Assembly (NCBI GenBank): GCA_023251795.1
Contig: JAHEYD010000003.1
Location: 73,853-137,852 of the forward strand
Reading direction: 5' to 3'
Source of the DNA: Nitrosotalea sp.
Lineage (GTDB): Archaea; Thermoproteota; Nitrososphaeria; Nitrososphaerales; Nitrosopumilaceae
Length of the DNA stretch: 64,000 nucleotides
The notes beneath the pieces were generated by a model that saw nothing but the letters and a program-made list of their open reading frames with translations, was not told the origin of the DNA and did not search any database. Below are positions 11,734-40,824 of the stretch, piece after piece. Position 1 is the first letter of the stretch; each line of letters starts with the position of its first letter. The translations under genes were made by a program, and so were the position numbers.

Positions 11734-14442
11734 ATGGATTGGATATTTGATAAAAGTTGCGAGCGCTGCAACTTATGTAATTCAGCTAGGTCCGTTTGTG
11801 TCGGTAATCGAGGTAAAGAGGAGGGACCGAAGCTTATAATTATAGGCGAAGCTCCGGGAAAAGAAGAAGATGTAAGCGATACGCCGTTCATAGGAAAAGC
11901 TGCTCAGCTTCTTGATAGCCTGATGAAAAAAGCAGGTATTAACGAAGACGATGTTTTGTATACAAACGTAGTTCGGTGTTTCCCCCACGAGAACGGGATT
12001 ACTAAACAACCAACTGAAGAAGAAGTTGATGCTTGCATACCGTATTTGTATGCTGTTTTGTCGGAGATTTCTAAGGACGGAAGTTATCCGATGATAGTTG
12101 CTCTCGGGAATGTTGCGCTTGAAGCGCTTACCGGGTTGAGGAATATTACTAAAAACAGGGGCATAGAATTTAATTTAGTAGTAAGGGACGCATACAAAGA
12201 CGTTGAAGAATTTGCCAACTTGAAAAACTTTAAGGTTATTGGCACAATTCATCCGTCTGCAGTTTTGCGTGGTCAATCGGCTTACGAGCCAAAAATCATT
12301 ACTGACTTGGGAGTTGCATGGAAGAAGGCAACCGGTAATTTCAAGTCTGACTATGATAAGGATTATGTTTGGGTTGATGACCCGCTGATCTTCGAATTCT
12401 TCGTTGACGAAGCAATAAAGCAATATCAAGCTGGTGAAATAAAGTGGGTGGCTTACGACTTGGAGACAACCGGTCTTGGTGTTTATGACAAGTCACAGAA
12501 GACAGTTGCTTTCTCGATGTGTAAAGATCCGGGTAAAGCTTTAGTTATACCACTACACCACAAAGACTCTCCGTGGAAGGAAGAATCCTTCATAATGGAT
12601 AGAGTTTTGAAGGACCTAGGAAGACTTCTTTCGAGCGTTCCTGTTTGCGGTTGGAATTTATCGTTCGATATCAAATGGACTTGGGTTCATCTTGGTTTGG
12701 ATTTCTTCAAGGTTGGATTCGACGGCCTGTTATCAAGAAAATGGTTGAACCCGTCGAAAGAACAAAACAACGACTTGAATTCTGTTTCTGCTGATGAGTT
12801 GGGGTTTGTTGGCCACGGCAGGGAAATTTGGGCCGAAATAAATACGCTACCGAAAGAAATTCAGCATATGGGGAACGTCAGTAAGAACGTTCTTCTGAAA
12901 TATGCTGGTGGCGACGCGGATGCCACTTTCAGGCTGTGCAATTCATATTTCGAAAGTATGAATAGTGTTGATGGTAACTTTGAAAATTTTGATAATTTAA
13001 TCCTTCGTGGGCTTATACCGGTTTGTAAGATGGAATACAACGGAGTGTTCATAGACAGGGATATGAATTCGTATCTTATGGATGAATACCCGAGAACAAT
13101 GGAGCCGCATATACAAATAGTAGAAAATTCTGTATGGGGGTCGGCAACTAAGTCGTTTCTTGCCGCTCGGAAGAGTGGGGACGGAAAGCCTGCACCGTTG
13201 GCATTCAATTTAAAGTCTGACGTGACTCTTAGGAATTTGATCTACTCACAAATGGAACTTCCAGCGATAAATGAAAAGAAGACCGGTCCTTCGACTGATA
13301 GGGAAACGTTGGAAACGTTGTCGGAAGTCTGTAATAATAATGGGTGGGACGATAAGAAGAAAGTTCTGGAAAACATAAACGAATGGCGAGCCCTTAGTCA
13401 TACGTATTCCAACTTTATTAAGAACATGCCTGAGTACACCGCTGCTGACGGATTCTTCCATACTCAGTACAATATCATGGGAACAGAATCGGGGAGATTC
13501 TCTTCATACAAGCCGTCAATTCACGGACAACCGAAGGGGTCGAAAGCTAGATGGCAATTCATTTCTCGCTGGCCGCATGGGGTCCTGCTTTCTGCTGACA
13601 TGAGCCAAATGGAAATGAGAATTCTAGCGTCTCTATCCGGTGACGAATCATTAATAGCATCAATTTTATCCGGTGTAGATATTCACACTTCTAACGCTTC
13701 TAGAATGTTCAAAGTACCAATTGAGGAAGTTACTAAGAAGCAAAGAGATAAAGCGAAGAGAGCCGGATTCGGAGTCGTTTACGGTATCGGAGCGCAAACC
13801 TTGGCAGCTAGAATCGAAACCTCTGTTGAGGAATCGCAAGCTATCATCAACGCGTGGTATGACGCTTTCCCTAAAACGTGGGAATATCAAGAAAAAGAAT
13901 GGAAGACAGCAAAGAAATACGGATGTGTCATTACCGATTTTGGTAGAGTTAGATGGATTGACGGTATAAAAACCTCCAAGTGGGGTGACCGACAGTGGCG
14001 ACAGGCTATTAATAATAGAATCCAGAGCCAAGCTTCCGATGTTACTTATTCATCTTTGTTGGAAATCTATTTTGAAATTGAGAAGCAGAAATTGCAGTCG
14101 TTGTTGTTTGGTTTCGTTCATGATGCTATTATTGTTGACGTTTTCCCCGGAGAATTGTTGAAAATACTTGACGTGCAATACTCCAAAATGGTAAAATGGA
14201 CGAATGAGACGTTCGAATGGATGAAAGCCCCTGTCAGTGCGGATTTCGAAATTGGAGCATCATGGGGATTTCCATGTCCGATAAAGAATTGGGAAAACAA
14301 TAAAATTACGGTTACTGGAGAAGAAGCCGGTCTACTGTTATTAGCTTCTAAGCTTAGTGTTCCTCCTGACATAACTAAACTTGAGGATGGGACAATGGAA
14401 ATGAGGTTTGAATATGAAGAAGAAAATGAAGGAAATATGTAG
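11734..14442 (+). CDS. family-4 uracil-DNA glycosylase domain fused to family A DNA polymerase with 3'-5' exonuclease
   Basis: N-terminus has CERCNLC...GEAPGKEEDVSDTPFIGKAAQLL...VVRCFP (UDG4). YDLETTGL is ExoI. DMSQMEMRILA is motif A. RDKAKRAGFGVVYG is motif B. VHDAII is motif C. Confidence 0.85.
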   Translation: MDWIFDKSCERCNLCNSARSVCVGNRGKEEGPKLIIIGEAPGKEEDVSDTPFIGKAAQLLDSLMKKAGINEDDVLYTNVVRCFPHENGITKQPTEEEVDACIPYLYAVLSEISKDGSYPMIVALGNVALEALTGLRNITKNRGIEFNLVVRDAYKDVEEFANLKNFKVIGTIHPSAVLRGQSAYEPKIITDLGVAWKKATGNFKSDYDKDYVWVDDPLIFEFFVDEAIKQYQAGEIKWVAYDLETTGLGVYDKSQKTVAFSMCKDPGKALVIPLHHKDSPWKEESFIMDRVLKDLGRLLSSVPVCGWNLSFDIKWTWVHLGLDFFKVGFDGLLSRKWLNPSKEQNNDLNSVSADELGFVGHGREIWAEINTLPKEIQHMGNVSKNVLLKYAGGDADATFRLCNSYFESMNSVDGNFENFDNLILRGLIPVCKMEYNGVFIDRDMNSYLMDEYPRTMEPHIQIVENSVWGSATKSFLAARKSGDGKPAPLAFNLKSDVTLRNLIYSQMELPAINEKKTGPSTDRETLETLSEVCNNNGWDDKKKVLENINEWRALSHTYSNFIKNMPEYTAADGFFHTQYNIMGTESGRFSSYKPSIHGQPKGSKARWQFISRWPHGVLLSADMSQMEMRILASLSGDESLIASILSGVDIHTSNASRMFKVPIEEVTKKQRDKAKRAGFGVVYGIGAQTLAARIETSVEESQAIINAWYDAFPKTWEYQEKEWKTAKKYGCVITDFGRVRWIDGIKTSKWGDRQWRQAINNRIQSQASDVTYSSLLEIYFEIEKQKLQSLLFGFVHDAIIVDVFPGELLKILDVQYSKMVKWTNETFEWMKAPVSADFEIGASWGFPCPIKNWENNKITVTGEEAGLLLLASKLSVPPDITKLEDGTMEMRFEYEEENEGNM

Positions 14443-18303: not shown

Positions 18304-18534
18304 ATGGTTAGGAAAATGATCAAACTTCTGAGGTTCATACGCGAGCTTTTTGAAACCCCGTATTGCGAGGTTTGCGGGGCCAAGATGATACCGGATGGGT
18401 GTGGTTTTTATGGTGGTTGGGAATGCCCGGTAGACGAATTTCATAGCAGATGCAAAGTTTGCGGGATCTGGAATAGAGAAGGTTACAATAAAGAAATCTG
18501 TGAAATGTGTAAGAGGAGACATTATGAGTGGTGA
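18304..18534 (+). CDS. small zinc-ribbon protein
   Basis: Four CxxC-type pairs (CEVC, CKVC, CEMC). Confidence 0.45.
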   Translation: MVRKMIKLLRFIRELFETPYCEVCGAKMIPDGCGFYGGWECPVDEFHSRCKVCGIWNREGYNKEICEMCKRRHYEW

Positions 18535-19078
18535 TAGTAAGATGAGCAAAATTCATTCTGCACCTAAGGATGAAGAGGGTGTAACCCCGTGTTGTGGAAG
18601 GTCCCCATTTGATCTTCCACTGACGGACCGGCTTACTAACATCCGTAGCTTGGTTACTTGCCATTCTGAGGCCGTTAGATACCAGAATAATAATCTTGAC
18701 GGTTTATTGGAGTGGTTGAAAGAAGATACCGAGGAAAACGGAGCGTTCGTAACTGGTACTGGTACCCACCCACGTCAAGAGACGTTGAGTGAGGAAGTAT
18801 TGAAAACGGCAAAGAACATAGTTGGTGGGTTTAGGCAAAGCGGGATCAGGGAAAGAAATTTTGGTGAGATAGCAAAGGTATGGAACGTAATATTAAGTAG
18901 TAAATTGAAAATGGCTGGCAGTATTGATGCTCATGATATTGCCCTTTGCATGGTTGGTTTGAAGCTTATTCGAGAAGTTGACCATGCGAAGGTCGATAAC
19001 TGTGTTGACGGGGCTGGTTACTTTGCTCTTGCTGCGGAAGAGGCTGAAAAAGAAAGGAAGGAACATGGGGTTTTTTGA
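18523..19078 (+). CDS. hypothetical protein, DUF6378-like C-terminus
   Basis: RBS AGGAGA before ATG 18523. FGEIAKVW...DIALCMVGLKLIRE...D..VDGAGYFAL pattern, recalled from memory. Confidence 0.45.
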
Positions 19079-19402: not shown

Positions 19403-19894
19403 ATGGAATGGTCAACTTGTGAGGATTGTGGTGTTACTGTTCGTTCTTTGTCTGAGCATGAATGTAAGAAGGTTGACTTGCTTTTTCTTTTAGACAACGC
19501 TAGGGAAGACATAATTAGGTTGAGAGAAAAGTTAGAAAAAAGGAAAGGCTTAAACGAATGCTCAGCGGAATGTTTCAAAGCCAATGAGAAATGGCACCAC
19601 GATCTAGTAACCGGAAAGAGGCTTGATAGAAACAAAGGCGAGCTTTTCATGTTAATGGTATCCGAGATTTCTGAAGCTATGGAAGGCGAGCGGAAGAATT
19701 TAATGGATGATAAGCTGCCGCACAGAAGAATGGTTGAGGTTGAACTTGCGGACCTATTAATTAGGGTGTTCGATTACGCTGGTGAGTTTGGTCTTGATTT
19801 GGAGGGTGCTTACAGCGAGAAAATGAAGTACAATGCACACAGAGAAGACCATACTAGAGAATCACGTTTGAAAGAAAACGGAAAGAAGTGGTAA
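19403..19894 (+). CDS. MazG-like nucleotide pyrophosphohydrolase
   Basis: ELFMLMVSEISEAMEGERK...EVELADLLIRVFDYA...KMKYNAHRED is the all-alpha NTP-PPase pattern. Confidence 0.7.
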   Translation: MEWSTCEDCGVTVRSLSEHECKKVDLLFLLDNAREDIIRLREKLEKRKGLNECSAECFKANEKWHHDLVTGKRLDRNKGELFMLMVSEISEAMEGERKNLMDDKLPHRRMVEVELADLLIRVFDYAGEFGLDLEGAYSEKMKYNAHREDHTRESRLKENGKKW

Positions 19895-20821: not shown

Positions 20822-23800
20822 GTGGAACTTTTTGGTTCTAATGTAACTTTTCGTCTTTCTAAAGATTTCGTATCACAATTTAAAAATGTCGCTCCGCCAT
20901 TCGGTTTTAATGGTCTTGGCGAGCTTACGTATATGAGAACGTATTCCAGAGTGAAGGATAATGGTGAAAAAGAGAAGTGGTATGAAACAGTTGAACGGGT
21001 AGTAAATGGTTGCTTCTCGATACAAAAGCGTTGGATAGACGGTAGGCATCTTGGTTGGTCCGAGGAAAAAGCTCAGAGATCAGCCGAAGAAATGTATAGA
21101 AGAATATTTCATATGAAATTCCTGCCGCCCGGAAGAGGGTTATGGGCGATGGGTTCATCAGTTATCGAAGAGAGAGGGTTATTTGCTAGTCTTTCGAATT
21201 GTGGTTTTGTCAGCACAGTAAATATGTCAACCAACCCCGTATCCCCATTCTCTTTTATGATGGATGCCGTAATGCTTGGGGTTGGGGTCGGATTTGATAC
21301 TAAGGGCGCTGGTACTGCGAAAGTTTACAAACCAAATGGGTACGTATATGGGTACAATATAGGTGACTCCCGAGAAGGGTGGGTAGATTCGGTCAGTCTT
21401 TTATTGGGTTCCTTCTTTTTCCGTGACTCTGGGAAGCCTTTGTTTGATTATTCGAATATTAGACCAGCGGGCAGCCCAATCAAGGGCTTCGGAGGTACCG
21501 CCGCTGGCCCGGAAGGGCTACTCCGAGCGCACGTTGACATAGAGAAGTGTATACTGGAATTTTTGGGCGATGAAACTGAAAAAGTAATTACTGAAAACCT
21601 AATTGTCGATCTTATGAACTTAGTAGGTAGGGCGGTTGTTTCCGGTGGTGTTCGACGCTCCGCACAAATAGCTCTTGGTATGGACTCTGATGAATATTTA
21701 GACTTGAAGGATTACAGTAAGAACCCGCATCGCATTGAATATGGGTGGACTTCCAATAATTCTATTTTTGCCGAAGTCGGTCAGGACTATTCTAGGATAG
21801 TTGACCGGATTAAAACAAATGGTGAGCCGGGTATTGTTTGGCTAAAAAACGCGAAGAATTATTCAAGGATGGGTTCTACCCCAGACTTCAAAGATGAATC
21901 TGTGGCTGGATGTAACCCATGTTTCCACCCTGACACTAGAATTTCAACTAACAGGGGACTTGTTTGTATAAAAGATCTGGAATCGGAAGTATTGGTGCAG
22001 TCTAATGATGGTATAATGAGGAGAGGATTGGTCTTTCCGACTGGTATTAAAGAAGTATTAGAAATACATACTAAACATGGTAGGCTATTAAAGGTTACTG
22101 AGAATCATCAAATAATGACATCTAGAGGTTGGGTTGAGGCTGCACAATTAACAGAATCCGACCAATTAATACTGCAAAATTCTGTTGGAATGTTTGGTGG
22201 AAAATCTAATATACCATTGGATTTATTTAAGGTTTTTGGTTGGTTGGTTGGTGATGGATATATTAGTAACGGACGACCACACGCGGTGTTTGGGAAAGAT
22301 GATAATGATTGTAAGTTGGAAATAGAGCGTATTTTATTATTGAATGGGTATAAATTTAATTCGTTCAAACAAACAAGTGGTAGTGTTGGAGAAAACCCGT
22401 ATAGAATGACTATAAGTAAAAAATTTATGGGGCTTGGTGATTACCATTGTACAGAGGGAGTTAAGGCAAGTGTCAAAGTAATACCGGACGCTGTGTTCAG
22501 ATCATCCATGGATGAACAATTGGCATTTTTATCGGGGTTATTTTCAGCGGATGGAACCGTTAATATTAGGGAAGGGAAAAGTTTTGATTTAAGACTTGCT
22601 AGTTCATCTATTGAATTATTGAGGGGTGTACAGTTAATTCTTAGTAACATGGGAATATTATCAAAAATTTACCAGAATAGACAGAATAGAAATGCAAATA
22701 AATTTACATACACAACAGTTTCTGGGGAGTTTAGAGAATATGAATCTAAGAATTACCACGACTTAATTGTTAATGGGGAAAGTTTAAGATTACTAAAACT
22801 GAATTTGATTCGCATTGGTATGGTTTCATCTAGAAAATCGTCGAAACTAGAATTAATATCAGATGAATTCGATAATTATGGTCATAATAGATTTGTAGAT
22901 ACAGTTAAAGAAATTGTAAGAAATGGTGAAGTAGTTACTGTGTACGATGTTTCTGAGCCAGAAACTAATAGTTTGACTGCTAATGGGGTAATAGTTCATA
23001 ACTGTGGTGAGCAGTTCTTGAATTCCTATGAATTATGTTGCTTAGTGGAATCATTCCCTGAAAAACATGAATCCAAAGACGATTTCCTTACTACGTTGAA
23101 ATACGCTTATCTCTACGCGAAGACCGTAACTTTATGCCCGACCCATTGGCCGGAAACTAACAGGGTAATGTTGAAAAACCGGCGTATTGGGTGCTCAATT
23201 TCTGGTGTGGCTCAGTTCATTTCTCGTAAGGGTTTACCAACTTTGATTGATTGGTGCAATTCTGGGTATTCGTATCTAACGAGGCTGGATTGCAAATATA
23301 GTGATTGGTTTACTATCCCGCGTTCCATCAAAATGACAACTGTTAAACCGAGTGGGTCTGTCTCGTTATTGGCTGGTGTCACTCCGGGAATGCATTTCCC
23401 AGAATCCCGGTTTTACATAAGGCGGATAAGATTGTCTAGTCATTCCGATTTGGTTCAGCCAATAATTGATGCTGGTTATTATGTTGAACCGTCTGCTGAA
23501 GACCCCCAAGCTGTGGTTGTGGAAATACCGGTTGATTCTGGCGATGGGATAAGGTCTGCTAGTGAAGTTTCGATGTGGGAACAACTAAATATAGCAGCGA
23601 TGTTGCAAAGGTATTGGAGTGACAATTCAGTATCGGTCACTGTCACCTTTGACCCAGACGCTGAGGTTGATCAGGTAAAGCACGCTATAGAATATTTTCA
23701 GTATAACTTGAAATCGGTGTCGTTTTTACCAAGAGTAAAGAATGGGGCGTATCAACAAATGCCGTATGAAACTATAACCAGGGAGAAATATGAAGAAATG

Positions 23801-23899
23801 AAATCTCGAATCCTGCCGATAAATTTTGAATCTGTTAATTCCGAAGCAGAAGTGGAAAAATATTGCACTTCTGACGTTTGCGAGGTTAAAATTGGATAA
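20822..23899 (+). CDS. nrdJ: class II (adenosylcobalamin-dependent) ribonucleotide reductase interrupted by an intein
   Basis: GTG start after AAGGGAGG. The FGFNGLGELTYMRTYSR N-terminus is typical of monomeric-type NrdJ. The catalytic NP|C...HN|CGE motif is split by the intein. Confidence 0.8.
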   Translation: MELFGSNVTFRLSKDFVSQFKNVAPPFGFNGLGELTYMRTYSRVKDNGEKEKWYETVERVVNGCFSIQKRWIDGRHLGWSEEKAQRSAEEMYRRIFHMKFLPPGRGLWAMGSSVIEERGLFASLSNCGFVSTVNMSTNPVSPFSFMMDAVMLGVGVGFDTKGAGTAKVYKPNGYVYGYNIGDSREGWVDSVSLLLGSFFFRDSGKPLFDYSNIRPAGSPIKGFGGTAAGPEGLLRAHVDIEKCILEFLGDETEKVITENLIVDLMNLVGRAVVSGGVRRSAQIALGMDSDEYLDLKDYSKNPHRIEYGWTSNNSIFAEVGQDYSRIVDRIKTNGEPGIVWLKNAKNYSRMGSTPDFKDESVAGCNPCFHPDTRISTNRGLVCIKDLESEVLVQSNDGIMRRGLVFPTGIKEVLEIHTKHGRLLKVTENHQIMTSRGWVEAAQLTESDQLILQNSVGMFGGKSNIPLDLFKVFGWLVGDGYISNGRPHAVFGKDDNDCKLEIERILLLNGYKFNSFKQTSGSVGENPYRMTISKKFMGLGDYHCTEGVKASVKVIPDAVFRSSMDEQLAFLSGLFSADGTVNIREGKSFDLRLASSSIELLRGVQLILSNMGILSKIYQNRQNRNANKFTYTTVSGEFREYESKNYHDLIVNGESLRLLKLNLIRIGMVSSRKSSKLELISDEFDNYGHNRFVDTVKEIVRNGEVVTVYDVSEPETNSLTANGVIVHNCGEQFLNSYELCCLVESFPEKHESKDDFLTTLKYAYLYAKTVTLCPTHWPETNRVMLKNRRIGCSISGVAQFISRKGLPTLIDWCNSGYSYLTRLDCKYSDWFTIPRSIKMTTVKPSGSVSLLAGVTPGMHFPESRFYIRRIRLSSHSDLVQPIIDAGYYVEPSAEDPQAVVVEIPVDSGDGIRSASEVSMWEQLNIAAMLQRYWSDNSVSVTVTFDPDAEVDQVKHAIEYFQYNLKSVSFLPRVKNGAYQQMPYETITREKYEEMKSRILPINFESVNSEAEVEKYCTSDVCEVKIG
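21920..23002 (+). mobile_element. intein (361 aa) with LAGLIDADG endonuclease
   Basis: CFHPDTRIST (block A), TENH (block B), WLVGDGY and LSGLFSADGT (LAGLIDADG), VIVHN|C. Confidence 0.85.
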
Positions 23900-24060
23900 A
23901 TTACTTAGCTATTCTTTGGATAACAACGGGGCGACGGCTCTAATGTTGAATGAGACTGGCGAACACCCAACTCCTCCTGATGATAGGAATGGATGGACAG
24001 TAAAGAAGAAAGAAAAAGTTGGTAATGTTTACCATTTTACTTGGTTCCTCAAGAAATAAC

Positions 24061-24091
24061 TTGACGGAAAATACATATTTTAGTTTACAAT
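24061..24091 (+). promoter_or_regulatory. weaker sigma70-type promoter
   Basis: TTGACG 24061-24066, 19 nt, TACAAT 24086-24091. Confidence 0.35.
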
Positions 24092-24235
24092 GTGAGGGTT
24101 GGGTTAGGCGATGGGATCTTTGTGGATAATCCCGATAAGTGTTGGGATACTTGTGGTTTTCATTGGCGTGAAATTTGGCAACAAATGGGGCGAGGATTAA
24201 AGCCTCGTCCGTAAATATAGAACGGAGAGAGTGAA

Positions 24236-25318
24236 ATGACGGTTGCGGTTGACGTGATTACCGGAGCAGCATTCGGTAGTGAAGGAAAAGGACTAGCTGC
24301 TGAAATGATCGGTCGTAGATACAAGCACGATCTTATTGTATCAGTAAACAGTAGCCAAGCCGGGCATACATCGCCAGTATTCGAGAACGATAGTCTACTC
24401 GGTTATATGGTGACTAGACAGTTACCGGCTGCCGCGCTAGGGAATAGAACTGCGAAGGTGTTTTTGGCACCCGGTTCGGTAATCCGAGCCCATGTTCTGT
24501 TTGAGGAAATTGAACAGATTGAGAACCAGTTTAAGGTTCCAATCAGAAACAGGCTGTATGTTTCAGCTTTTGCTTCTGTGATTACTGACGAAGATATCCG
24601 TTACGAAGAAGAAGAAAAAATGTGGGAGAAGGGCGGATCAACTCAAGAAGGGGTTGGCCGTGCAGTTTCCCTAAGAGCGATAAGGAAAGGTGCTATTGTC
24701 CGGGACGTTCGTGATGAGTTTGCCCGACATGGTGTTCAGGTTATCGATGAAGTGGACCCTCTAGAATTGATAAGCACTCATTATACACTTGGGTCTATTC
24801 GCTCAGGAAACGTCCTTCTAGAAGGATCTCAGGGGTTTGGACTTTCCACTTTCTACAAATTCTACCCGTATTGCACTTCTAGACCAGCCACTACCGCCGG
24901 ATTTCTGGCAATGGCTAATTTGAGCCCGAAGCTTGTGCGCAATGTCTACGGAGTAACAAGAACGTTCCCGATAAGAGTGGCTGGAAATTCCGGACCGCTT
25001 CACGAAGAGCTTGATTGGGCGACTCTTTCAAAAGAAGCTGGTTACGATGATCTGACTGAAATTACGACAGTAACAAAGCGGATTCGCCGTATCGGCAGGT
25101 TCGATATGGACCTGTACAAGTCTGCGCTTGAAATAAATGGGATTACCCACCCAATTCTTACTTTTGCTAATTACCTTGGTAAGGAAAATGAAGGGGTCAC
25201 CACTTGGGAAGGCTTGACCGACAATGCAAAGAAATTTATACAAAATGTGGAAGCAGTTTCCGGTATAGGCTTTTGGGCTATTTCTACAGCTAAGAGCGGT
25301 GGATGGATTCTTAGTTAA
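24236..25318 (+). CDS. adenylosuccinate synthetase family protein (PurZ-like candidate)
   Basis: P-loop GAAFGSEGKG (canonical PurA has GDEGKG). AGHT, LLEGSQGFG...YPYCTS, RTFPIRV and TTVTKRIRRIGRFD are collinear with PurA motifs. Confidence 0.75.
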   Translation: MTVAVDVITGAAFGSEGKGLAAEMIGRRYKHDLIVSVNSSQAGHTSPVFENDSLLGYMVTRQLPAAALGNRTAKVFLAPGSVIRAHVLFEEIEQIENQFKVPIRNRLYVSAFASVITDEDIRYEEEEKMWEKGGSTQEGVGRAVSLRAIRKGAIVRDVRDEFARHGVQVIDEVDPLELISTHYTLGSIRSGNVLLEGSQGFGLSTFYKFYPYCTSRPATTAGFLAMANLSPKLVRNVYGVTRTFPIRVAGNSGPLHEELDWATLSKEAGYDDLTEITTVTKRIRRIGRFDMDLYKSALEINGITHPILTFANYLGKENEGVTTWEGLTDNAKKFIQNVEAVSGIGFWAISTAKSGGWILS

Positions 25319-28300
25319 TGAATTTTCTTGTACTTGGTGATTTACATGCTACACCTTTTGGTGAATTCAGTCGTTCGATAAACCAATCAGGCGATACAAC
25401 ACTTTCCCGGTCCATACTGGACACCGCAAGGTGGGTCCGAGAAGTATACGGCAAATCAAACGTCAGTTTGTTCATAAACAACGGTGATCATACTTCTACG
25501 CCCGGAAAGTTAGATTCCCCGACAATCCGGTTGCTCGAATTGATTGAGCAAGAATGGAAGTCAATAAAGAGGTTGTACAACATAGGGAATCACGATCTTG
25601 ATAACAAGGTCGGGTTGCACAACCTACATTTACATGCCGGGTATGACGATCTGACCGTAGTTGAACCAAACAAAGTAACGAAACTAGACGACAACGTATA
25701 TGTTGTGCCGTTTACTTATTCAATAGACAGACAAATAGAGCTTCTCAGGTCCATAGAAGACGGTTCGGTTGTAATTGTCCATACCCCGATAAAGGGGGTC
25801 CTCATGACCCCCGAAATATTCGAGGAGCACGGCGTACCGGCGGATGAATTTGGAAGGTTTGCGTTCACCATTGCGTCACATTACCATATACCGCAAATCA
25901 TATCGAAAACGTCTCACATAACACTTTCGAGCGAAACTTCTGGAATTCTTCCGGAAGGGTCTATCGTAGTTACTGGTACCCCGATTCCTCATTCCTTTGC
26001 TGACCAAAATTCGGTTTATGGTATTTGGCGTGTCGAGAGCGATAGCAGATATGTTGAATTTTTCGAAAACCCTCATGCCCCCGTGTACTTATCACGTAAA
26101 ATACAGTCCGACTCAGAAATCAAGAAAATAAAAGAGGAAATATCAGGGTACGGCGACCGTCGTGTATTTTTATCAATTTCTGCCCCAAAGAACGTGGCCG
26201 ATAAAATAGACCAAGATACTTTTGATGTTCAAAACGTAAGGATAAGAAGAGAAAAGCCGAAAGAGATTGAAGCGTTACCAAACAGAATGAAAATTGACGA
26301 TAACGCTTCGTTGATAAACAATATTAAGTCATATTTGAGGAAGATCAAGTCAGATTCCGTAGAGGAAATTTCTAATTACTTGTCGCCATTTATTTCTAAA
26401 CTACCGTCGGACGAGTCAACTTCAAACATAAACTTCCGACAATTAAACTTGAGAAATTTTATGTCTTGGGGAGAAGCCGAAGTAAGCTTTGACGGGTCTG
26501 GGCTGGTTTTAGTACAGGGTGTAAATAATGACACGGCGACAGCTAGTTCTAACGGGTCCGGTAAAACTTCTCTTTTGGAATCAATAATCTGGTGTTTGTT
26601 CGGTAATTCGTTCAGGAATTTTGATTCCAAAGATAGAATAATAAGGCAAGGTTCTAAGGGAGGGTGTTCAGTATCGTTGACGTTTGATATCAACGAGGAA
26701 ACGTACAGAGTAACGAGAACTAGAAAGTCGCCATCTACTGGAGTGACTGTTGAGAAATTGTCTGACGGTGTTTGGGTGGATATTTCTAGGGGGTCTATAC
26801 CCGCTACGGACGAGCAAATAAAACAGCTAACAGGGTACACGTTCGACACTTTTTCGGTTATTACTTTCTTTGGTTCTAGGTTCAATAACCAATTCTCAAT
26901 GATAGGTGATGCCGACAAGAAGAAGTTTTTGGGGTCGGTAGTAGGGATTATTCAATACTCAGAACTCCGTGATTTAGTAAGGGCTGAAATAGCGCCTGTA
27001 TCAAGAGAGCTAGATTCTACGGAAGCGAAGATAGAAATTCTAAGCAAAAAGTTGTTGGAATTTGAAGCTAGGTTGGTAGACGAAGAATTAGAAATAGAAA
27101 ACAAAAAGGCCGAAGATCTTAGAGAAATAGACGAATTAACCAAGAAGAGAAGGGTGTTAATATCGTCTTGTTCATCTATCGACAAGAATATAGAGAAAAT
27201 TGATTTTGACATTAATGAAATACAAAATAAGTTGTCTGCGTTTTCAAGTATTGAGGCAGAAAGGTCAAGGCTTGAATCTGAGCTTTCATCGTCAAAAGTA
27301 TTACTAAACAGATTATCAAGCGAAGCTTCGAGAGCGAAATCTAGACTATTCGTAGCTTCTGATAAGGTTAAAAATCTGGATACTAACTGCCCGACTTGTG
27401 GACAGTTGCTCCCGCAAGAGTCTGTTGATGCTGTGAAAGCAGAATTAATGGAATCAGTTGACAAAGCAGCTAAAGAGTTGACGGAAATATCTGCAAATAG
27501 GTCAGACGCGGAAGCGGTAGCTAAAGATAAAGAAAACAAAATCCAAGAATTCGATGATAACCACAAGAATGACAAAAAGTTAATATTCGGGTTGTCTTCA
27601 GAATTATATTCTATGAGATCTGATAAGAAAAACATAGAAAAGGAAAGACAGGATAAAAACGCTCAAGCAGCGTCTTTCTTAGCGAAAATAGAATCAATCA
27701 AAAACAACGATTACGAGAAATCAATAAACAACCTAAGGAAAACAGTAGAATCGACTTCTGATGAAATAAATGTCTTAACAGAGAAAAGTCTGTTGCTAGC
27801 AAAACAAAAGGAACTATCTAGCACTGCTGACAGGATACTATCACCACAGGGTATCATTTCTTACGTCCTAGACTCTGGCATAGGGCAATTAAATTCTTAC
27901 CTTGAGTACATATCTAACTTCATCTTTGGCGGTGATTACGTAATTTCTTTGGAGTCAACTAAAGAACTGCAAAAGGGCGGAGAAGAGAACAAAATAACGA
28001 TAAAGTATTCGACTCCTGCCGGTTCGTATTTGGCTTCTTCGGATGGAGAGCGCAGAAAAGCTGATATAGCGGTGTTTTTGGCAGTAAACTTTTTGGCTAG
28101 TGGGAACGGTAAAAGTTCTAACATACTAATTGCTGATGAGGCGTTGGATTCGTTAGACCACGTGGCGTCAAAATTCGTTGTAGACGCCATAAGTAAATTC
28201 GCTGAAGAAGAGTGTAAGAGAGTATTTTTGGTATCGCATTCTGATAACGTAGTCTCATGGGTGCCAGAAGTTATGGTTGTAGAAAGATCTTCTGGAATTT

Positions 28301-28326
28301 CGAGGATAATAAATGGCAACGTATGA
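25318..28326 (+). CDS. fused SbcD/Mre11-like nuclease and SbcC/Rad50-like ATPase
   Basis: N-terminus has GDLH, NNGDH, GNHD, VHTP phosphoesterase motifs. From about aa 375: NGSGKTSLLESI (Walker A), long coiled coil with a CPTCGQ zinc hook, SSDGERRK signature, ILIADEALDSLD (Walker B), LVSHS. Confidence 0.8.
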   Translation: MNFLVLGDLHATPFGEFSRSINQSGDTTLSRSILDTARWVREVYGKSNVSLFINNGDHTSTPGKLDSPTIRLLELIEQEWKSIKRLYNIGNHDLDNKVGLHNLHLHAGYDDLTVVEPNKVTKLDDNVYVVPFTYSIDRQIELLRSIEDGSVVIVHTPIKGVLMTPEIFEEHGVPADEFGRFAFTIASHYHIPQIISKTSHITLSSETSGILPEGSIVVTGTPIPHSFADQNSVYGIWRVESDSRYVEFFENPHAPVYLSRKIQSDSEIKKIKEEISGYGDRRVFLSISAPKNVADKIDQDTFDVQNVRIRREKPKEIEALPNRMKIDDNASLINNIKSYLRKIKSDSVEEISNYLSPFISKLPSDESTSNINFRQLNLRNFMSWGEAEVSFDGSGLVLVQGVNNDTATASSNGSGKTSLLESIIWCLFGNSFRNFDSKDRIIRQGSKGGCSVSLTFDINEETYRVTRTRKSPSTGVTVEKLSDGVWVDISRGSIPATDEQIKQLTGYTFDTFSVITFFGSRFNNQFSMIGDADKKKFLGSVVGIIQYSELRDLVRAEIAPVSRELDSTEAKIEILSKKLLEFEARLVDEELEIENKKAEDLREIDELTKKRRVLISSCSSIDKNIEKIDFDINEIQNKLSAFSSIEAERSRLESELSSSKVLLNRLSSEASRAKSRLFVASDKVKNLDTNCPTCGQLLPQESVDAVKAELMESVDKAAKELTEISANRSDAEAVAKDKENKIQEFDDNHKNDKKLIFGLSSELYSMRSDKKNIEKERQDKNAQAASFLAKIESIKNNDYEKSINNLRKTVESTSDEINVLTEKSLLLAKQKELSSTADRILSPQGIISYVLDSGIGQLNSYLEYISNFIFGGDYVISLESTKELQKGGEENKITIKYSTPAGSYLASSDGERRKADIAVFLAVNFLASGNGKSSNILIADEALDSLDHVASKFVVDAISKFAEEECKRVFLVSHSDNVVSWVPEVMVVERSSGISRIINGNV

Positions 28327-34265: not shown

Positions 34266-35044
34266 TGGATAAGAAAGAGTTTATTGCTTACGCAAAGGAA
34301 TTCATCGAGTTAAGATCCCCGGAACTCGATGGTATTTCACCGAAGACCGTAGAAAGAATAATTTACTCAATATTTGAGTCAATAGTAACAGTTATAGAAC
34401 GTGGTGATGAAGTTAGATTTTCCCCGGTTGGCATATTCTTTCCTAGGATTGTTCAACGTGGCGACGCTTTGGTAGCATCGAAAATAGGATTTGAGTCATT
34501 TTCGGCCATAAACACAAGGCTGTTTGAGAAGTTCAGTAAGTTGCCGATTTTTAGCTCTAAACAATCGACCATAAGAGTATTTGCAGCAAACGGTGCTTTA
34601 AAAGTCACTGATGAAGAGGGGAAGGAATTGTACTCTCTTACCCAAGCAGCGAGAATGGCGAACGTTTCATTGCCTACAGCACATAAGTACAAAGAAAAAT
34701 ATAAAGACAGAATACCAGTAGTAAAAACTCAACAAGGCAATAGGTATTCAGAATCTGCAGTAGAAGTTTTCAAACAGATAAAACTCGAAAACATCCAAAA
34801 CACCAAAGTAAAAAATACGAATTACAACATAAAATTCCCGTCGAACATTGGCGAGTTTTCGTTGTCGGCAATATCGAAAATGACTTCTACTTCTATGCCT
34901 ACTTTGTATAAATACATGAAAAAATACCCTGATATATTAGACCCATATGTTCATCAGATAGATAACGAAAAGAAGTATTCGAGAGAATTTGCGAAGAAAG
35001 TGGTTGACATTAAAAACTCCAACATGTCACAATTCGGACAATGA
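34265..35044 (+). CDS. HU/IHF-like N-terminal domain plus two MerR-like HTH repeats
   Basis: KKEFIAYAKEF...KTVERIIYSIFESIVTVIERGDEVRFSPVGIF is HU-like. Repeats are YSLTQAARMANVSLPTAHKYKEKY and FSLSAISKMTSTSMPTLYKYMKKY. Confidence 0.45.
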   Translation: MDKKEFIAYAKEFIELRSPELDGISPKTVERIIYSIFESIVTVIERGDEVRFSPVGIFFPRIVQRGDALVASKIGFESFSAINTRLFEKFSKLPIFSSKQSTIRVFAANGALKVTDEEGKELYSLTQAARMANVSLPTAHKYKEKYKDRIPVVKTQQGNRYSESAVEVFKQIKLENIQNTKVKNTNYNIKFPSNIGEFSLSAISKMTSTSMPTLYKYMKKYPDILDPYVHQIDNEKKYSREFAKKVVDIKNSNMSQFGQ

Positions 35045-36879
35045 ATTTCAAAGACCTTATAGAAGCCATTTTAAAAGAAACCAACAAATCAGTTGGTAGG
35101 ATAAGGGGTGGTATTCCTGAAATTCCGTCAGAATTATCACAAAAAGGGTATGCTAACCCATCTGTCAAAAAATCAGCGGACCACGGTTTCAAAATCATAA
35201 AAGGAAACTATAGGAAAGCTTTGAGTGATTTGGTTACCGATTACCAAGAAAACAGGTTGGTGCTGCGCAAGTTCAGGGAAAACGCCGAAAAATTAATGAG
35301 ATCGTACTTCGAAAAAGCATACCGATATGGAATGATGATTCAAGCCGGTATATCATCGACCCCCAAGGATTTCCAGTTGAAGCAGTCTCAGTACCAGTGG
35401 ATAGCGAAAGCTGCTGCTGAAGAATACAAATACTTTGAGTCATTAATCAACGATATTAGAACCGGGAACCAGAAAGTACATTTCCTTTCTAGGGTAGATA
35501 GATATGTTGATACTCTGAATTCGATAAAGGACGCTGGAATTGTTGCAGGCACGCCAGTTGAAGGGTATGTAATATTTCGTTGGGAAGTTGACTATGACGC
35601 GGAACATTGCCCCGGTTGCCTATATCTTGCAGAGCATTCACCTTTTACTAGAGAAAATATACCATGTTTGGTCGGGGAAACAAAAATCCATACTTTGGCT
35701 GGTGAATTTACTATAGAAGAATTGTATCGTGGCAAATATCCGTATGAACATATGTTTGTTTGGTCAATAGATGGTGATATGATATTACCATCATTGGTAA
35801 AAGCTGTGGTGTGCAATGGGGAAGAAGAAACGTTAATAGTTACTTTAGATAATGAAGAAAAAATTGAATGTACTCCTGACCATTTATTTATTTTGAAAAA
35901 CGGAAAGGTGAGAAAATCGTCTGAATTATCAGTCGGTGATTCTCTTATGAGATTTGACACTGTAATTGATAGGGATGGATATAGAAAAATATTAAGCAAA
36001 AAAACTAATAGGTGGTTTAGAGCACATTGGTTGGTGGCCAGATATTTCGGTTTATTTGATGGTGTTAAATTTGATGGACAAAGGCCAGTTATACATCATA
36101 TATTATCAGATCAAAAATCAAATAACGACCCGATGAACTTGTTGGCGATGGGAAACGTGGATCACAACAAACTTCATGGTGATCATTTTGTAAAAAATCT
36201 AAGAAATTGGGAGACAGAAAATCCTAATGACCTTTTTGAACTGAGAAGGAATAATGCTAATAGATTCAGGGATTTGTGGTCCAAATTTGACAATAGAATA
36301 ACAAATAACCAGAAATTAAATGCTAAAAAAAGGGCTGAATGGGCTAGAAACAACAGACATTTATTCTCAGAAAAAGCGAAACAGGCATTTGTAAATAATC
36401 CAGGATTGAGAAATATCAGTAGGGAATCCGGGAAAAGAAACTTTAAACACATAGAAAAATTCATAAAATATATAAGTGATGATAAAAAGAAAGAAATATT
36501 AAAGCTACGTATGGAAGGTAATTCGTACAACGAAATATCGAAAATTGTTGGAGTATCTATTGGTGGTGCATGGAAGGTGTGCAAGAACAATTTATCAAAC
36601 CACAAAGTAGTGAGTGTAAAGAAATCTACTAAAAAAATAGTGTATGATCTTATCACTGATGCTGGAAATTTTGCTTTATCAAGTGGTATTTTTATACACA
36701 ATTGTACACCTAGAGACGGTGCTACGCAATGTCTTTATAATTGTAAGTGTGGTCTAACAGTACAGAAAGTAGATAAGAAGACTTACGATTCAATAGTTAG
36801 GTCCTCAATTTCCAAGAAGTCGATGTTGTCACACCTTAATAGGATGAAACAGGCTTCTTTAGGCACGAGGAGAAGATGA
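35041..36879 (+). CDS. Mu F / SPP1 gp7-like head morphogenesis protein interrupted by an intein
   Basis: The exteins join as HCPGCLYLAEHSPFTRENIP|CTPRDGATQCLYNCKCGL (C..C ... NC[KR]C motif). Follows the portal gene. Confidence 0.6.
   Translation: MNFKDLIEAILKETNKSVGRIRGGIPEIPSELSQKGYANPSVKKSADHGFKIIKGNYRKALSDLVTDYQENRLVLRKFRENAEKLMRSYFEKAYRYGMMIQAGISSTPKDFQLKQSQYQWIAKAAAEEYKYFESLINDIRTGNQKVHFLSRVDRYVDTLNSIKDAGIVAGTPVEGYVIFRWEVDYDAEHCPGCLYLAEHSPFTRENIPCLVGETKIHTLAGEFTIEELYRGKYPYEHMFVWSIDGDMILPSLVKAVVCNGEEETLIVTLDNEEKIECTPDHLFILKNGKVRKSSELSVGDSLMRFDTVIDRDGYRKILSKKTNRWFRAHWLVARYFGLFDGVKFDGQRPVIHHILSDQKSNNDPMNLLAMGNVDHNKLHGDHFVKNLRNWETENPNDLFELRRNNANRFRDLWSKFDNRITNNQKLNAKKRAEWARNNRHLFSEKAKQAFVNNPGLRNISRESGKRNFKHIEKFIKYISDDKKKEILKLRMEGNSYNEISKIVGVSIGGAWKVCKNNLSNHKVVSVKKSTKKIVYDLITDAGNFALSSGIFIHNCTPRDGATQCLYNCKCGLTVQKVDKKTYDSIVRSSISKKSMLSHLNRMKQASLGTRRR
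35665..36702 (+). mobile_element. intein (346 aa) carrying an HNH endonuclease and an HTH domain
   Basis: CLVGETKIHT (block A), TPDH (block B), VIHHILSD...NLLAMGNVDHNKLH (HNH), SYNEISKIVGVSIGG (HTH), GIFIHN|C. Confidence 0.8.
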
Positions 36880-38387: not shown

Positions 38388-38867
38388 ATGAACAATTGCG
38401 CGAATTGCGGTAACCAGCTAGCGAAATATCAAATGAAATTTTGCTCTATTAAATGTTCTGTGTCTTACTCTAATAGAACAAGAGTAAGGCCACATCAGAA
38501 TCAGTTAAAAATTAGGTTATGTAAGAAATGCAAATCCGATATAAATAGACGAGATTGGAAAGACAACCGGTTTTTGTGCGAAGAATGTTCTGATAAGTCA
38601 AAAACTGATCTGTACCGAATTGGTGAGTTGAAAGATTTTAAAAGAGTAATAAGTGAGAATGCTAGAAGGGTATATTACAAATCAAATAAACCAAAACATT
38701 GTGTAGTTTGCGGGTATGATAAACATTTTGACGTTTGCCACGTAAAAGCAATAAAAGAATTCCCACCGAATGCTGTTGTTTCAGAAGTAAACTGCATAGA
38801 CAACCTAGTAGCGTTATGTAAAAATCATCATTGGGAATTCGATAGCGGGTTGATTACGCTGGGGTAA
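38388..38867 (+). CDS. HNH homing endonuclease
   Basis: CVVCGYDKHFDVCHVKAI...NLVALCKNHHWEFD. The stop TAA lies inside the 5' end of the next tRNA. Confidence 0.8.
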   Translation: MNNCANCGNQLAKYQMKFCSIKCSVSYSNRTRVRPHQNQLKIRLCKKCKSDINRRDWKDNRFLCEECSDKSKTDLYRIGELKDFKRVISENARRVYYKSNKPKHCVVCGYDKHFDVCHVKAIKEFPPNAVVSEVNCIDNLVALCKNHHWEFDSGLITLG

Positions 38868-38943
38868 CACTCTGGGAGTGTAACCGGCTGTTAACCGGTC
38901 TAGGGAAACCTTAAGTTTGGTTCGATTCCAAACCTCAGCGCCA
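38858..38943 (+). tRNA. tRNA with anticodon GTT (Asn) on a class II body (16-nt variable arm)
   Basis: Fold: GCTGGGG TA ACAC-TCTGGGA-GTGT A ACCGG-CTGTTAA-CCGGT CTAGGGAAACCTTAAG TTTGG-TTCGATT-CCAAA CCTCAGC G CCA. Confidence 0.55.
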
Positions 38944-39011
38944 TTTAAATTTAAACAAACGAAGTCCAACCCCGCAATTAGACCTAGCGGGAGAAACGAG
39001 GAACAGATATT

Positions 39012-39087
39012 GCCCCTGTCGTCTAAAGGTTCAGGATGAGAGTCTTTCAAGCTCACGATCCGGGTTCGAGTCCCGGCGGGGGTACCA
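39012..39087 (+). tRNA. tRNA-Glu(TTC)
   Basis: Collinear with E. coli tRNA-Glu. Loop CTTTCAA. T-arm CCGGG-TTCGAGT-CCCGG. Acceptor GCCCCTG/CGGGGGT. Encoded CCA. Confidence 0.8.
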
Positions 39088-39721
39088 GAATTGGTTGGCA
39101 GTCCAATGAAACAAAACTGCCTAGGCGCGTTCTAAATTCCGAGTCTGACGAACGGCGAAGATAATGACTTGGGGATCGCTCGCTAGTTCATAGGAGCAAC
39201 CTTCTGCCAGTAAGCGTTGCTGATATAGCGAGAGACTGGTTTCGATGGTCGTGGACTTAGCCACGTTAAATAGGGCGATAGGCTAAGTGCGGATTTCGCG
39301 TCAGGTCGTTCGTACCGTGTTTGGAGACTTCCCTCCTACTTCAAACACGCGGGGAGACACCGGATGAAGGGCGGGCACTCCGATGAGTCTCTTAAATCAA
39401 TCGCACCGCTGACGCGATTTCGAGCCGCTAGGAAAGGCTTCTGGTTTGGTCACCGGCTGTCCGTGCCACACTTTAGTGCCCCTTGTAAAGGGCCGAGAAC
39501 TGACCCTTCTTATTGTTGTGGAACCTAGCAATCTTCTCCGTGCTTCTAAAACAACCCGGCACGGCGTCGGAAATTTGAGGGTTGCGATCCTAGGAGTGCA
39601 GGGGGGTTTCCGAAATGCATCGGTGCAATACGCGTGAGTACGTCAGACCAATGAACACTGACGAGGCAGGCGAATGGTCGCTGGCGAAGCGCGTTCCCCA
39701 AATTTCGCGAAAGATATAAAG
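39088..39721 (+). ncRNA. ORF-free helix-dense RNA locus B (unclassified)
   Basis: About 630 nt between tRNA-Glu and the next HNH gene with no credible ORF. Helices include 39097-102/39116-121, 39179-85/39226-32 enclosing 39196-200/39216-220, and a 10-bp helix 39316-25/39340-49. Confidence 0.5.
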
Positions 39722-40063
39722 ATGCCATTCAAAAATAAAAAACAAAAAGCCGAATACATGGCTGAATATAGAAAGCGAATGACCGAAGAGCAGAAGCGAA
39801 AAGCTTCTGCCAGAGTAGAAGATAGGAAAAGAGAGATTGCGGAATGGTTACAAGATTTAAAGCTGTCTTTGGCATGTGAGGAATGTGGTGAGAGCCATCC
39901 GGCTTGTTTGGATTTTCACCACACTGACCCATCAGAAAAAGAAGTGGCAATATCTAGGATAAGGTTAAAAGGTTGGTCAACAAAAAGAATAATGAAAGAG
40001 ATAAAGAAGTGCAGAGTTTTGTGTGCAAATTGCCACAGGAAATTGCATTATGTGGCCGGTTAG
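39722..40063 (+). CDS. HNH homing endonuclease (paralog family)
   Basis: CEECGE...LDFHHTDP...CRVLCANCHRKLH. The stop TAG lies at positions 8-10 of the next tRNA. Confidence 0.8.
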   Translation: MPFKNKKQKAEYMAEYRKRMTEEQKRKASARVEDRKREIAEWLQDLKLSLACEECGESHPACLDFHHTDPSEKEVAISRIRLKGWSTKRIMKEIKKCRVLCANCHRKLHYVAG

Positions 40064-40128
40064 TGAAACGGTTATCCCATCTGGCTTACATCCAGAAATT
40101 AGAGGTTCGATTCCTCTACCGGCTACCA
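40054..40128 (+). tRNA. tRNA-Val(TAC)
   Basis: Acceptor GGCCGGT/ACCGGCT. Arm TCTGG-CTTACAT-CCAGA. T-arm AGAGG-TTCGATT-CCTCT. A CCA. Confidence 0.8.
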
Positions 40129-40148
40129 GTCCTTTCTTTCGCACCAAC

Positions 40149-40222
40149 GGGCGGTTAGTTAAACGGGATAACATTGGCTTTGCAAGCCAAGATTGAGAGT
40201 TCGATTCTCTCACTGTCCACCA
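40149..40222 (+). tRNA. tRNA-Ala(TGC)
   Basis: Acceptor GGGCGGT/ACTGTCC with G3:U70. D arm GTTA/TAAC. Arm TTGGC-TTTGCAA-GCCAA. T-arm GAGAG-TTCGATT-CTCTC. Confidence 0.85.
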
Positions 40223-40401
40223 GAGATAAATTTACACCCCCAATTACCTGATGTTGAGATCAGGGAAAACGACCGTAGGGGCGGAAAGCAGGTGTGCTAC
40301 GGCCTCAGTCGCGGCGATTTGCGAGTGGCTGGCCCGTCGAAGGGGACTTTCCGGGGGGTGTTTTCAGGCTTCGCAGCAAAAACGATCAAACGAAGGAAAA
40401 T

Positions 40402-40823: not shown

Positions 40824-40824
40824 T

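Follow-up and report, generated by a model that had tools for sequence, protein, structure and literature searches.

A 64,000-nt stretch of DNA filed under Nitrosotalea sp. (hereafter the window; assembly GCA_023251795.1, contig JAHEYD010000003.1, positions 73,853 to 137,852) carries a phage-encoded homologue of adenylosuccinate synthetase (PurA) that is assigned here as a candidate PurZ-type succino-aminodeoxyadenylate synthase. The gene, purZ, is an open reading frame (ORF) at 24236..25318 on the plus strand, which opens with ATG and encodes 360 residues with the frame intact, as an earlier sequence-only reading of the window had held. The assignment draws on Pfam family PF00709, the best-scoring NCBIfam model, sequence motifs, an AlphaFold model and a phylogenetic tree, which place the protein in the PurZ group, in a separate and previously uncharacterised clade with hybrid features. 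It is fairly likely that the product is a functional PurZ-type enzyme that feeds the deoxynucleotide of 2-aminoadenine (dZ) into DNA. Replacement of A by Z in the phage genome would be plausible, as judged from the gene content, and could be either full or partial.

The window protein matched PF00709 (adenylosuccinate synthetase) with E=1.8e-39, and a sequence search of the PDB returned the short archaeal PurA of P. horikoshii as the top match (best E=3e-31); by these scores, the protein is homologous to adenylosuccinate synthetase at a level well past chance. An AlphaFold model built with 76 homologues reached a predicted local distance difference test score (pLDDT) of 95.1 and a predicted template modelling score (pTM) of 0.93, and it superposed on structures of short PurA, PurZ0 and PurZ (5K7X, 7VF6, 7ODX, 6FM1) with template modelling (TM) scores of 0.79-0.90. 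The Pfam match, the PDB matches and the model all revealed the short archaeal-type architecture. Fold comparison was tried as a subtype classifier and rejected, because PurA, PurZ0 and PurZ gave similar TM values (all 0.79-0.85).

All of the PurA-collinear motifs that had been read from the sequence were located in the protein, including the altered P-loop GSEGKG. FGSEGKG spans residues 13-19, QAGHT 41-45, EGSQG 196-200, YPYCTSR 210-216, PIRVAGNSG 245-253, and TTVTKRIRR 277-285. Ser15 of the P-loop occupies the place of the catalytic Asp13 of PurA; of 147 phage PurZ-group proteins, 100% have Ser here, and 99% of PurA have Asp (PMC12884076). Mutation of the S14 residue of phiVC8 PurZ to Asp abolishes substrate selectivity (bioRxiv 10.1101/2025.10.22.683976).

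Pocket residues of the window protein were compared in one alignment with those of E. coli PurA, a fragment of P. horikoshii PurA, the PurZ of phages phiVC8 and S-2L, and Ghobes PurZ0, using criteria from the literature; the residue definitions for PurZ0 (Tong et al. 2023) are second-hand, as relayed by other sources. The key residues of the window protein are F13, S15, H44, G134-S135-T136, Q199, Y212-C213-T214, R247-V248, the loop insertion G250-N251-S252-G253, T277, R284-R285, and the base motif T309-F310-A311-N312-Y313. F13, S15, and T277 align with F12, S14, and T262 of phiVC8 PurZ, and G134, S135, Y212, C213, T214, R247, and V248 with G130, S131, Y203, C204, T205, R240, and V241 of S-2L PurZ. 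In the S-2L enzyme, V241 is pushed by the loop insertion and clashes with the 2'-OH; the two-residue PurZ-type insertion after PIRV, which presses on C2', is present in the window protein (PIRVAGNSG). Archaeal PurA has W, D, and G at the pocket positions, and PTRVGAG without the insertion. Inspection of the residues that discriminate between deoxyguanosine monophosphate (dGMP) and inosine monophosphate (IMP), which had been proposed as a check, found every position of the dGMP pocket to be of the PurZ type in this alignment, pointing to dGMP as the probable substrate.

These residues also bear on whether the protein might instead be an auxiliary PurA-like adenylosuccinate synthetase acting on IMP (or dIMP), which would boost the supply of adenine nucleotides during infection with no link to 2-aminoadenine. 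True PurA does occur in large phages, such as the 735 kb megaphage LR756501, whose enzyme has GDEGKG and TKAD; P. horikoshii PurA is the best structural match of the window protein; and the archaeal PurA model scores it nearly as high as the PurZ model (197.3 versus 219.6 bits). However, the catalytic-base Asp13 is replaced by Ser and the guanine-binding Asp by Asn, the residues and the loop that admit the 2-amino group and exclude the 2'-OH are those of PurZ, the PurA equivalog cutoffs are missed by far (PRK04293, 197 of 368; TIGR00184, 141 of 395), and PurA stands apart in the tree at 99% bootstrap, all of which make an ordinary adenylosuccinate synthetase highly improbable.

The tree was computed by neighbour joining from 134 sequences (119 database homologues and 15 references; 325 trimmed columns, 200 bootstraps). 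It separated a Ser13 group of 131 sequences, with the window protein inside it, from the PurA of P. horikoshii and E. coli (bootstrap 99%); deep nodes within the Ser13 group did not resolve. The window protein and sequences P0002-P0042 formed a clade of 42, with a bootstrap of 99. The phylogenetic placement against PurA, PurZ and PurZ0 that had been called for accordingly gave a divided answer: the protein falls within the Ser13 PurZ group and not with PurA, but in neither the PurZ nor the PurZ0 clade. The best NCBIfam model was PurZ (NF038379; 219.6 bits). On the same model, verified PurZ and PurZ0 scored 346-397, the PurZ of Ochrobactrum phage vB_OspP_OH (OH) 241, and relatives from the clade 223-235; in profile terms the clade lies between archaeal PurA and PurZ. 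The active-site residues, the best NCBIfam model and the tree alike support the core call of the sequence-only reading, a candidate PurZ rather than a PurA.

Relatives of the protein are distant. About 40 metagenomic proteins of the clade are 43-51% identical to it, and an exhaustive phmmer search over 1.84 billion representatives returned no relative above 51% identity, with about eleven 50%-clusters in its score tier before a gap. The closest GenBank phage proteins are 31-36% identical. A single-protein scan of IMG/VR found no close relatives; an alignment-based scan did retrieve relatives.

The nucleotide-base motif of the window protein is T-F-A-N-Y, the counterpart of N-F295-C-N297-Y298 in phiVC8 PurZ. 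Residues F310, N312, and Y313 of the adenine pocket are present, phiVC8 N294 is replaced by Thr309, and the GFGP loop by AISTAKS. The guanine-binding Asp is kept in PurA (TKLD), archaeal PurA (TMLD), and PurZ0 (SFADQ and TMLDQ); the window protein has Asn312 in its place. With moderate confidence, ATP is predicted to be the phosphate donor, which is nevertheless uncertain because the C-terminal loop is AISTAKS rather than GFGP and phiVC8 N294 is Thr. The enzyme might also act on dGMP with another donor, either GTP, as PurZ0 does, or xanthosine or inosine triphosphate (XTP or ITP), and would then be a PurZ0-like intermediate rather than an ATP-type PurZ. The clade stands weakly beside PurZ0 in the tree, its C-terminal half and 'IST' loop resemble archaeal PurA and PurZ0, and its relatives carry a dUTPase-fold partner like that of PurZ0 phages; a D333N mutant of E. 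coli PurA has reportedly switched from GTP to XTP. This possibility is considered quite unlikely, since the guanine-binding Asp has become Asn in all members of the clade (42/42, at the position of PurA D333), as in the ATP-using phiVC8 PurZ, and F310 and Y313 match the adenine-stacking F295 and Y298.

The purZ gene belongs to a replication and repair operon. A helicase, an intein-bearing DnaB-like gene, a primase, a family A polymerase (PolA) with a uracil-DNA glycosylase (UDG) domain, a gene resembling those for single-stranded-DNA-binding proteins, and RecA form the module; downstream of them follow a DUF6378 gene, a MazG-like gene, a flap endonuclease (FEN), a class II ribonucleotide reductase (RNR), purZ, and Mre11-Rad50, and then terminase and portal. 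A ribosome-binding site (GGAGAGAG) ends 4 nt 5' of the purZ ATG, and the purZ stop codon TAA overlaps the ATG of the Mre11-Rad50 gene by one base (TAATG). Inside the replication module, purZ thus has a good ribosome-binding site and is translationally coupled to the gene downstream. The Mre11-like metallophosphoesterase is itself fused to a Rad50/SbcC-like ATPase in one ORF of 1002 residues at 25318-28326.

A non-coding gap of 336 nt (23900..24235, plus strand, from reading of the sequence) lies 5' of purZ. It contains a hairpin at 24188-24211 and a promoter-like pair, TTGACG-19 nt-TACAAT, at 24061-24091, where a promoter scanner made no call; the scan gave no sigma-70-like site near purZ with a spacer of 16-18 nt, and no Rfam match was found near the gene. 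The GC content of purZ is 46%, compared with about 40% in neighbouring genes, and GC at third codon positions is equal; by these two measures, there was no clear sign of recent transfer relative to the neighbours.

The MazG-like gene (19403..19894, plus strand; 163 residues) was identified by phrog_5658 and Foldseek as a MazG/DCTPP1-like all-alpha NTP pyrophosphohydrolase. It lies 4.3 kb from purZ, with FEN and RNR between, and its product carries a short Cys/His-rich N-terminal extension. The match to phrog_5658 ('pyrophosphatase') was 3e-51, and the family comprises 2,883 homologues, many of them about 116 residues long and about 70% identical, under the JGI name 'NTP pyrophosphatase (non-canonical NTP hydrolase)'. 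For the predicted structure (pLDDT 92), Foldseek ranks 1-44 were all DCTPP1, MazG, YpjD, HisE or DR2231, with probabilities up to 1.00, yet E-values of 0.05 or weaker; S-2L MazZ was not in the top 50 structural matches. The protein had no Pfam (including PF04447) or NCBIfam match, and no PDB sequence match of note. A hidden Markov model of the family matched only the purZ-adjoining MazZ/DUF550 ORFs of three phages with Z-containing DNA (Z-phages; E=1e-4 to 4e-4, 17-19 bits), and hhalign related the family to the MazZ group with a probability of 82% (E=1e-5). The claimed MazG-like gene therefore stands as an all-alpha NTP pyrophosphatase according to phrog and Foldseek, but as a member of a generic phage family that is only remotely related to MazZ. 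It is a candidate dGMP supplier, and possibly a dATP sink.

The polymerase claimed in the sequence-only reading was recovered at 11734..14442 (plus strand) as a replicative family A enzyme that has a 3'-5' exonuclease and, at its N-terminus, a UDG-like domain of family 4 (Pfam UDG, DNA_pol_A_exo1, DNA_pol_A), but it is not a member of either family of the Z-preferring polymerase DpoZ. Among polymerases of cultured phages, those of SPO1-like Bacillus phages come closest, with 27-30% identity. The RNR that had been listed beside it is also present (20822..23899, plus strand) and is of class II (B12-type), with an intein and a LAGLIDADG endonuclease; its Pfam domains are RNR_Alpha, RNR-II_ins_dom, Ribonuc_red_lgC, Intein_splicing, and LAGLIDADG_3. 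A dNMP-kinase-like gene, also listed, was not found: Walker-A motifs occurred only in RecA, a putative terminase and a primase-like ORF, no kinase family match appeared, and neither the Walker-A scan nor family searches of the window and its 10 kb flanks detected a small nucleotide kinase. Of the pathway context first proposed, the MazG-like, PolA and RNR genes are thus in place, while the dNMP kinase is not; the PolA is no DpoZ, and MazZ is represented only remotely.

A DUF6378-domain protein of 184 residues (18524..19078, plus strand; Pfam PF19905 at 2.9e-18) is encoded just ahead of the MazG-like gene. The gp31 protein of phage OH matched PF19905 at 5e-23 and the window DUF6378 protein, by phmmer, at E=0.001. 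The domain occurs near purZ in 2/80 IMG/VR loci. It was considered as a cryptic DUF5664-type pyrophosphatase and dropped, as hhalign related it neither to DUF5664 nor to MazZ nor to the MazG-like family; a PDB sequence search with the protein gave no meaningful match.

These genes suggest a pathway in which the class II RNR would supply deoxynucleotides, and the MazG/DCTPP1-like pyrophosphatase would be the most likely source of dGMP (from dGTP), possibly hydrolysing dATP too. The PurZ-type enzyme would condense dGMP with aspartate, using probably ATP or dATP rather than GTP as donor, to give dSMP (N6-succino-2-amino-2'-deoxyadenylate). The adenylosuccinate lyase (PurB) and kinases of the host could then convert dSMP to dZTP, which the phage UDG-PolA would insert into phage DNA opposite T.

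Several observations weigh against this proposal. Helper genes were searched for in the window and about 10 kb on each side of it, that is, in 84 of the ~140 kb of the phage genome, and none was found for DatZ/HD, DutZ/dUTPase-fold, DmtZ/NDT, DUF5664, or DUF550 proteins. The polymerase reached only 46 bits on DpoZ_1 (cutoff 500) and 39.6 on DpoZ_2 (cutoff 350), compared with 287 on generic Pol I, and the generic MazG-like family is next to purZ in 0/80 other PurZ loci. The clade of the window protein lies outside both biochemically characterised clades, joining PurZ0 (Ghobes, Wayne, Hiyaa) at only 24% bootstrap, with canonical PurZ (phiVC8, S-2L, SH-Ab 15497) elsewhere. The base loop AISTAKS is nearer to the ISTGP of PurA and to archaeal PurA than to the GFGP of ATP-type PurZ, and lacks the stacking Pro. 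The score of 219.6 bits falls below the NF038379 cutoff of 300, with the archaeal PurA model close behind; such a score does not exclude PurZ, as the cutoff is conservative, given that the PurZ of OH, from a complete datZ/mazZ/purZ cluster, scores 241. Finally, Ser13 homologues (of the Asp-type subgroup) also sit in cellular cassettes that are not prophages, so Ser13 does not by itself mark a phage as having Z-DNA.

The absence of an HD-type DatZ, noted in the sequence-only reading, was borne out over the window and its flanks, where neither a motif scan nor five DatZ queries nor the Pfam tables showed one. Searches by phmmer with DatZ, DutZ, DmtZ, DUF5664 and MazZ against six-frame ORFs of the window gave only borderline MazZ/DUF550 matches to the 19403-19894 ORF. 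PurB was likewise not detected in the 84 kb, and PADLOC returned no match for window proteins.

Since the searched part yielded neither a dedicated enzyme for dATP removal nor a DpoZ, substitution could be partial rather than complete. A PurZ-type enzyme might act here without producing a fully Z-substituted genome, either through partial replacement or mainly by reshaping the purine deoxynucleotide pool. Besides the missing helpers and the polymerase, incomplete Z-clusters in E. coli give lower substitution, with synergistic effects of losing datZ and mazZ (PMC8342488), and many PurZ-group genes sit on large viral contigs with no known partner (some twelve loci have no recognisable one within 10 kb, and several of these are on contigs of 81-268 kb). 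Against this, the PurZ of S-2L consumes dATP itself as phosphate donor, the MazG-like enzyme could hydrolyse dATP as the DUF550 protein of SH-Ab 15497 does, and about 40% of the genome lies outside the searched part. Z-phages have repeatedly acquired different enzymes that remove dATP (PMC12884076), which makes an unrecognised one plausible here. An enzyme without a fully Z-substituted genome is regarded as unlikely, although less so than a non-ATP donor, and an enzyme feeding dZ into DNA remains the preferred reading.

Six loci of the clade, on contigs of 20-74 kb, were compared (L007, L009, L022, L023, L024, L074). All six have the order purZ, a gene of about 1 kb, and RecA, with a dUTPase-fold gene further on, and all contexts are phage-like, each with this nucleotide-pool enzyme. 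A DnaE-type polymerase III (Pol III) alpha subunit is encoded in five of the six, a primase-helicase is annotated in L007 and L009, and DatZ or MazZ was found in none of them. A literature search returned no paper linking PurZ with polymerase III and none describing the partner set of the clade. Most Asp-type (PurZ0-like) loci, as published, combine Dut or NDT-Dut with PolA or DpoZ, and a canonical locus (L095) has DatZ, MazZ and DpoZ. We put forward, tentatively and with some doubt, that the clade represents a third PurZ lineage, descended from a PurZ0/archaeal-like ancestor, with an independent Asp-to-Asn (GTP-to-ATP) switch and a previously undescribed set of partners. These would be a dUTPase-fold protein and DnaE-type Pol III alpha in phages of ~50-70 kb, and the DCTPP1-like MazG, DUF6378 and UDG-fused PolA in the window phage.

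L046 (IMGVR_UViG_3300035130_000240), which is distantly related to the window phage, has eight genes in common with it. Its portal, helicase, DnaB, primase and PolA follow the order of the window, and its RecA, FEN and purZ lie elsewhere. The PurZ-group gene of this relative is of the Asp-type, is 32% identical to the window protein, and is located between DnaB and primase. Since it differs in both subtype and position, PurZ-group genes enter and leave this lineage of phages, and the copy in the window phage did not simply come along with the replication module.

The cellular cassettes mentioned above (L102 8147-11451 and L103 8049-12318) consist of an RNase_H_2-domain protein of 615-655 residues followed by a Ser13/Asp-type PurZ-like gene. 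In L103 only, the next gene encodes a dCTP-deaminase/dUTPase-fold (DCD-fold) protein; the corresponding place in L102 is taken by an unannotated ORF of 136 residues, and the L102 flanking protein alone gave a weak kinase-like match. The neighbours of one cassette are rpmA, obg, and proB, in a metagenome-assembled genome of the Rhodospirillaceae; the other is on a 5.76 Mb contig, next to SbcCD-like genes. The cellular PurZ-like proteins had no match to the defence-system models of PADLOC, and the flanking protein had weak matches only. The cassettes may reflect an uncharacterised cellular use of a PurZ-like enzyme.

Fusions of PurZ-like domains were found elsewhere as well. Among 140 further representative clusters, 21 were at least 480 residues long and are taken as fusions of a kinase-like with a PurZ-like domain; each of the six that are extended at the N-terminus and were scanned combines a P-loop kinase-like domain (AAA_18, AAA_33 or AAA_17) with a Ser13 Asp-type PurZ-like domain. 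The long or fused proteins, all from outside the window, include P0251, P0253, P0254, P0260, P0263, P0273, and P0344; in P0344, the PurZ-like domain is fused to a DCD-fold domain. Fusions to kinase-like and DCD-fold domains support a coupling of PurZ-like proteins to nucleotide-pool enzymes.

Among cultured phages, Bacillus phage vB_BpsS-140 (MH884512, L011) encodes a PurA-like protein of the Asn type, with Ser13 and a long stretch inserted after PIRV. The protein scores 233.9 bits on the archaeal PurA model and 211.5 on the PurZ model, and RecA, helicase, primase and adenylate kinase genes are nearby.

A protein identical to the window protein was found on a metagenomic contig of ~140.5 kb in two independent assemblies, from Logan (SRR14366791) and ENA (ERZ27279937), the window corresponding to about positions 30158-94157 of the ENA contig. 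The two assemblies have different start points, which suggests that the contig is a complete, circularly permuted phage genome. No GenBank phage with similar DNA was found. The portal is of the T4 type and is at most 32% identical to that of any cultured phage.

Other features of the window were recorded in passing. It contains 27 tRNA genes (38858-51629 and 63256-63349), of which 26 form a cluster with small ORFs and an HNH gene in between; most amino acids are served, tRNA-Ile(tat) and tRNA-Ile(aat) being among the genes, and the GC content of this region, up to 50%, is higher than in the rest of the window. Inteins or homing-endonuclease inserts occur in three genes: the DnaB-like gene (7645-10173; Hom_end/LAGLIDADG), the class II RNR (20822-23899; Intein_splicing and LAGLIDADG), and a 612-residue ORF (35041-36879; Intein_splicing). 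A Ku homologue (52630-53475), an adjoining small ligase-like gene (~53483-54247) and an ATP-dependent DNA ligase gene (61541-62656) look like a repair set of the non-homologous end-joining type in a phage. NADAR, DUF488 and HAD_SAK_2 genes (1598-2685 and 7191-7652), together with an RtcB RNA ligase just upstream of the window (L019 4336-5526), may form an RNA-repair or ADP-ribose-related set.

Z-DNA phages represent a well-studied rewriting of the genetic alphabet, and current models recognise two clades, PurZ and PurZ0, each with its own dATP-removing helpers and a Z-preferring polymerase. The locus and its clade suggest that the PurZ family is broader than this split, and that a PurZ-type enzyme can sit in differing replication machineries, with Pol III alpha or, in a large phage, with a PolA that is not DpoZ. 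If the DNA is fully Z-substituted, the phage would have a new way to exclude dATP without DatZ, DutZ or DpoZ, and Z-genomes would extend to large myovirus-like phages; with Z in its DNA, it would provide a test case for the minimal requirements of Z-DNA and a source of new dZ-DNA enzymes. In aquatic viromes, 28/29 PF00709 proteins of restriction-resistant (dZ) contigs cluster with PurZ, and more than 2,000 viruses, most of them unverified, have been predicted to be Z-phages by PurZ homology (PMC13128860). If the window phage is not Z-substituted, PurZ homology alone over-predicts Z-genomes, which matters for a count obtained in this way. A divergent copy of PurZ, in an uncultured and unusually large phage with none of the usual helpers in the searched 84 kb, is a credible addition to a known theme, and does not in itself demonstrate DNA modification.

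Among characterised enzymes, the window protein resembles the PurZ of phiVC8 (6FM1) and S-2L (7ODX) in fold, in Ser for Asp13, and in TTVTK and F-x-N-Y, and its predicted dGMP pocket is identical. It differs from them in its identity of only ~31%, its place outside their clade, the loop ISTAKS rather than GFGP, and Thr for phiVC8 N294. The window has no adjoining mazZ-datZ pair, DpoZ or PrimPol, and its ~140 kb phage with a T4-type portal contrasts with the 39-45 kb podovirus and siphovirus genomes of phiVC8 and S-2L. With the GTP-using PurZ0 of actinophages Ghobes and Wayne (7VF6), the protein shares 33-34% identity, the P-loop G-S-E-x-K-G, the short PIRVAGNSG loop and an archaeal-like C-terminal half, and PurZ0 is its weak sister in the tree (24% bootstrap); the dUTPase-fold gene that is typical of PurZ0 phages is found in relatives of the clade, not in the searched 84 kb of the window phage. 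Unlike PurZ0, it has Asn312 for the guanine-binding Asp, and its surroundings hold no DutZ, DmtZ, or DUF5664 in the 84 kb and no DpoZ-1 (46 of 500 bits).

P. horikoshii PurA (2D7U, 5K7X) is the best PDB match in both sequence and structure (E=3e-31, TM 0.85/0.90) and shares the short architecture, with the C-terminal region aligning to the end. It differs from the window protein in its Asp13 (GDEGKG), Trp for Phe13, Gly for Thr277, PTRVGAG without the insertion, and TMLD. Phage OH is the only reference Z-phage compared that has a DUF6378 gene, as the window phage does, and its PurZ, at 241 bits, likewise falls under the NCBIfam cutoff. In OH, this gene (gp31) is directly upstream of purZ and contiguous with mazZ and datZ, and a DpoZ-type PolA is present, whereas in the window the DUF6378 and MazG-like genes are 4-5 kb upstream of purZ, beyond FEN and RNR, with no datZ in the 84 kb. 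From the ~50-70 kb phages of its own clade (L007, L009, L022, L024, L074), the window phage differs in having PolA and, in the 84 kb, no dUTPase-fold gene, and in gene order and genome size, whereas it shares with them a PurZ that is 43-49% identical, the F-x-N-Y motif, the 'ST' C-terminal loop, and a RecA gene nearby.

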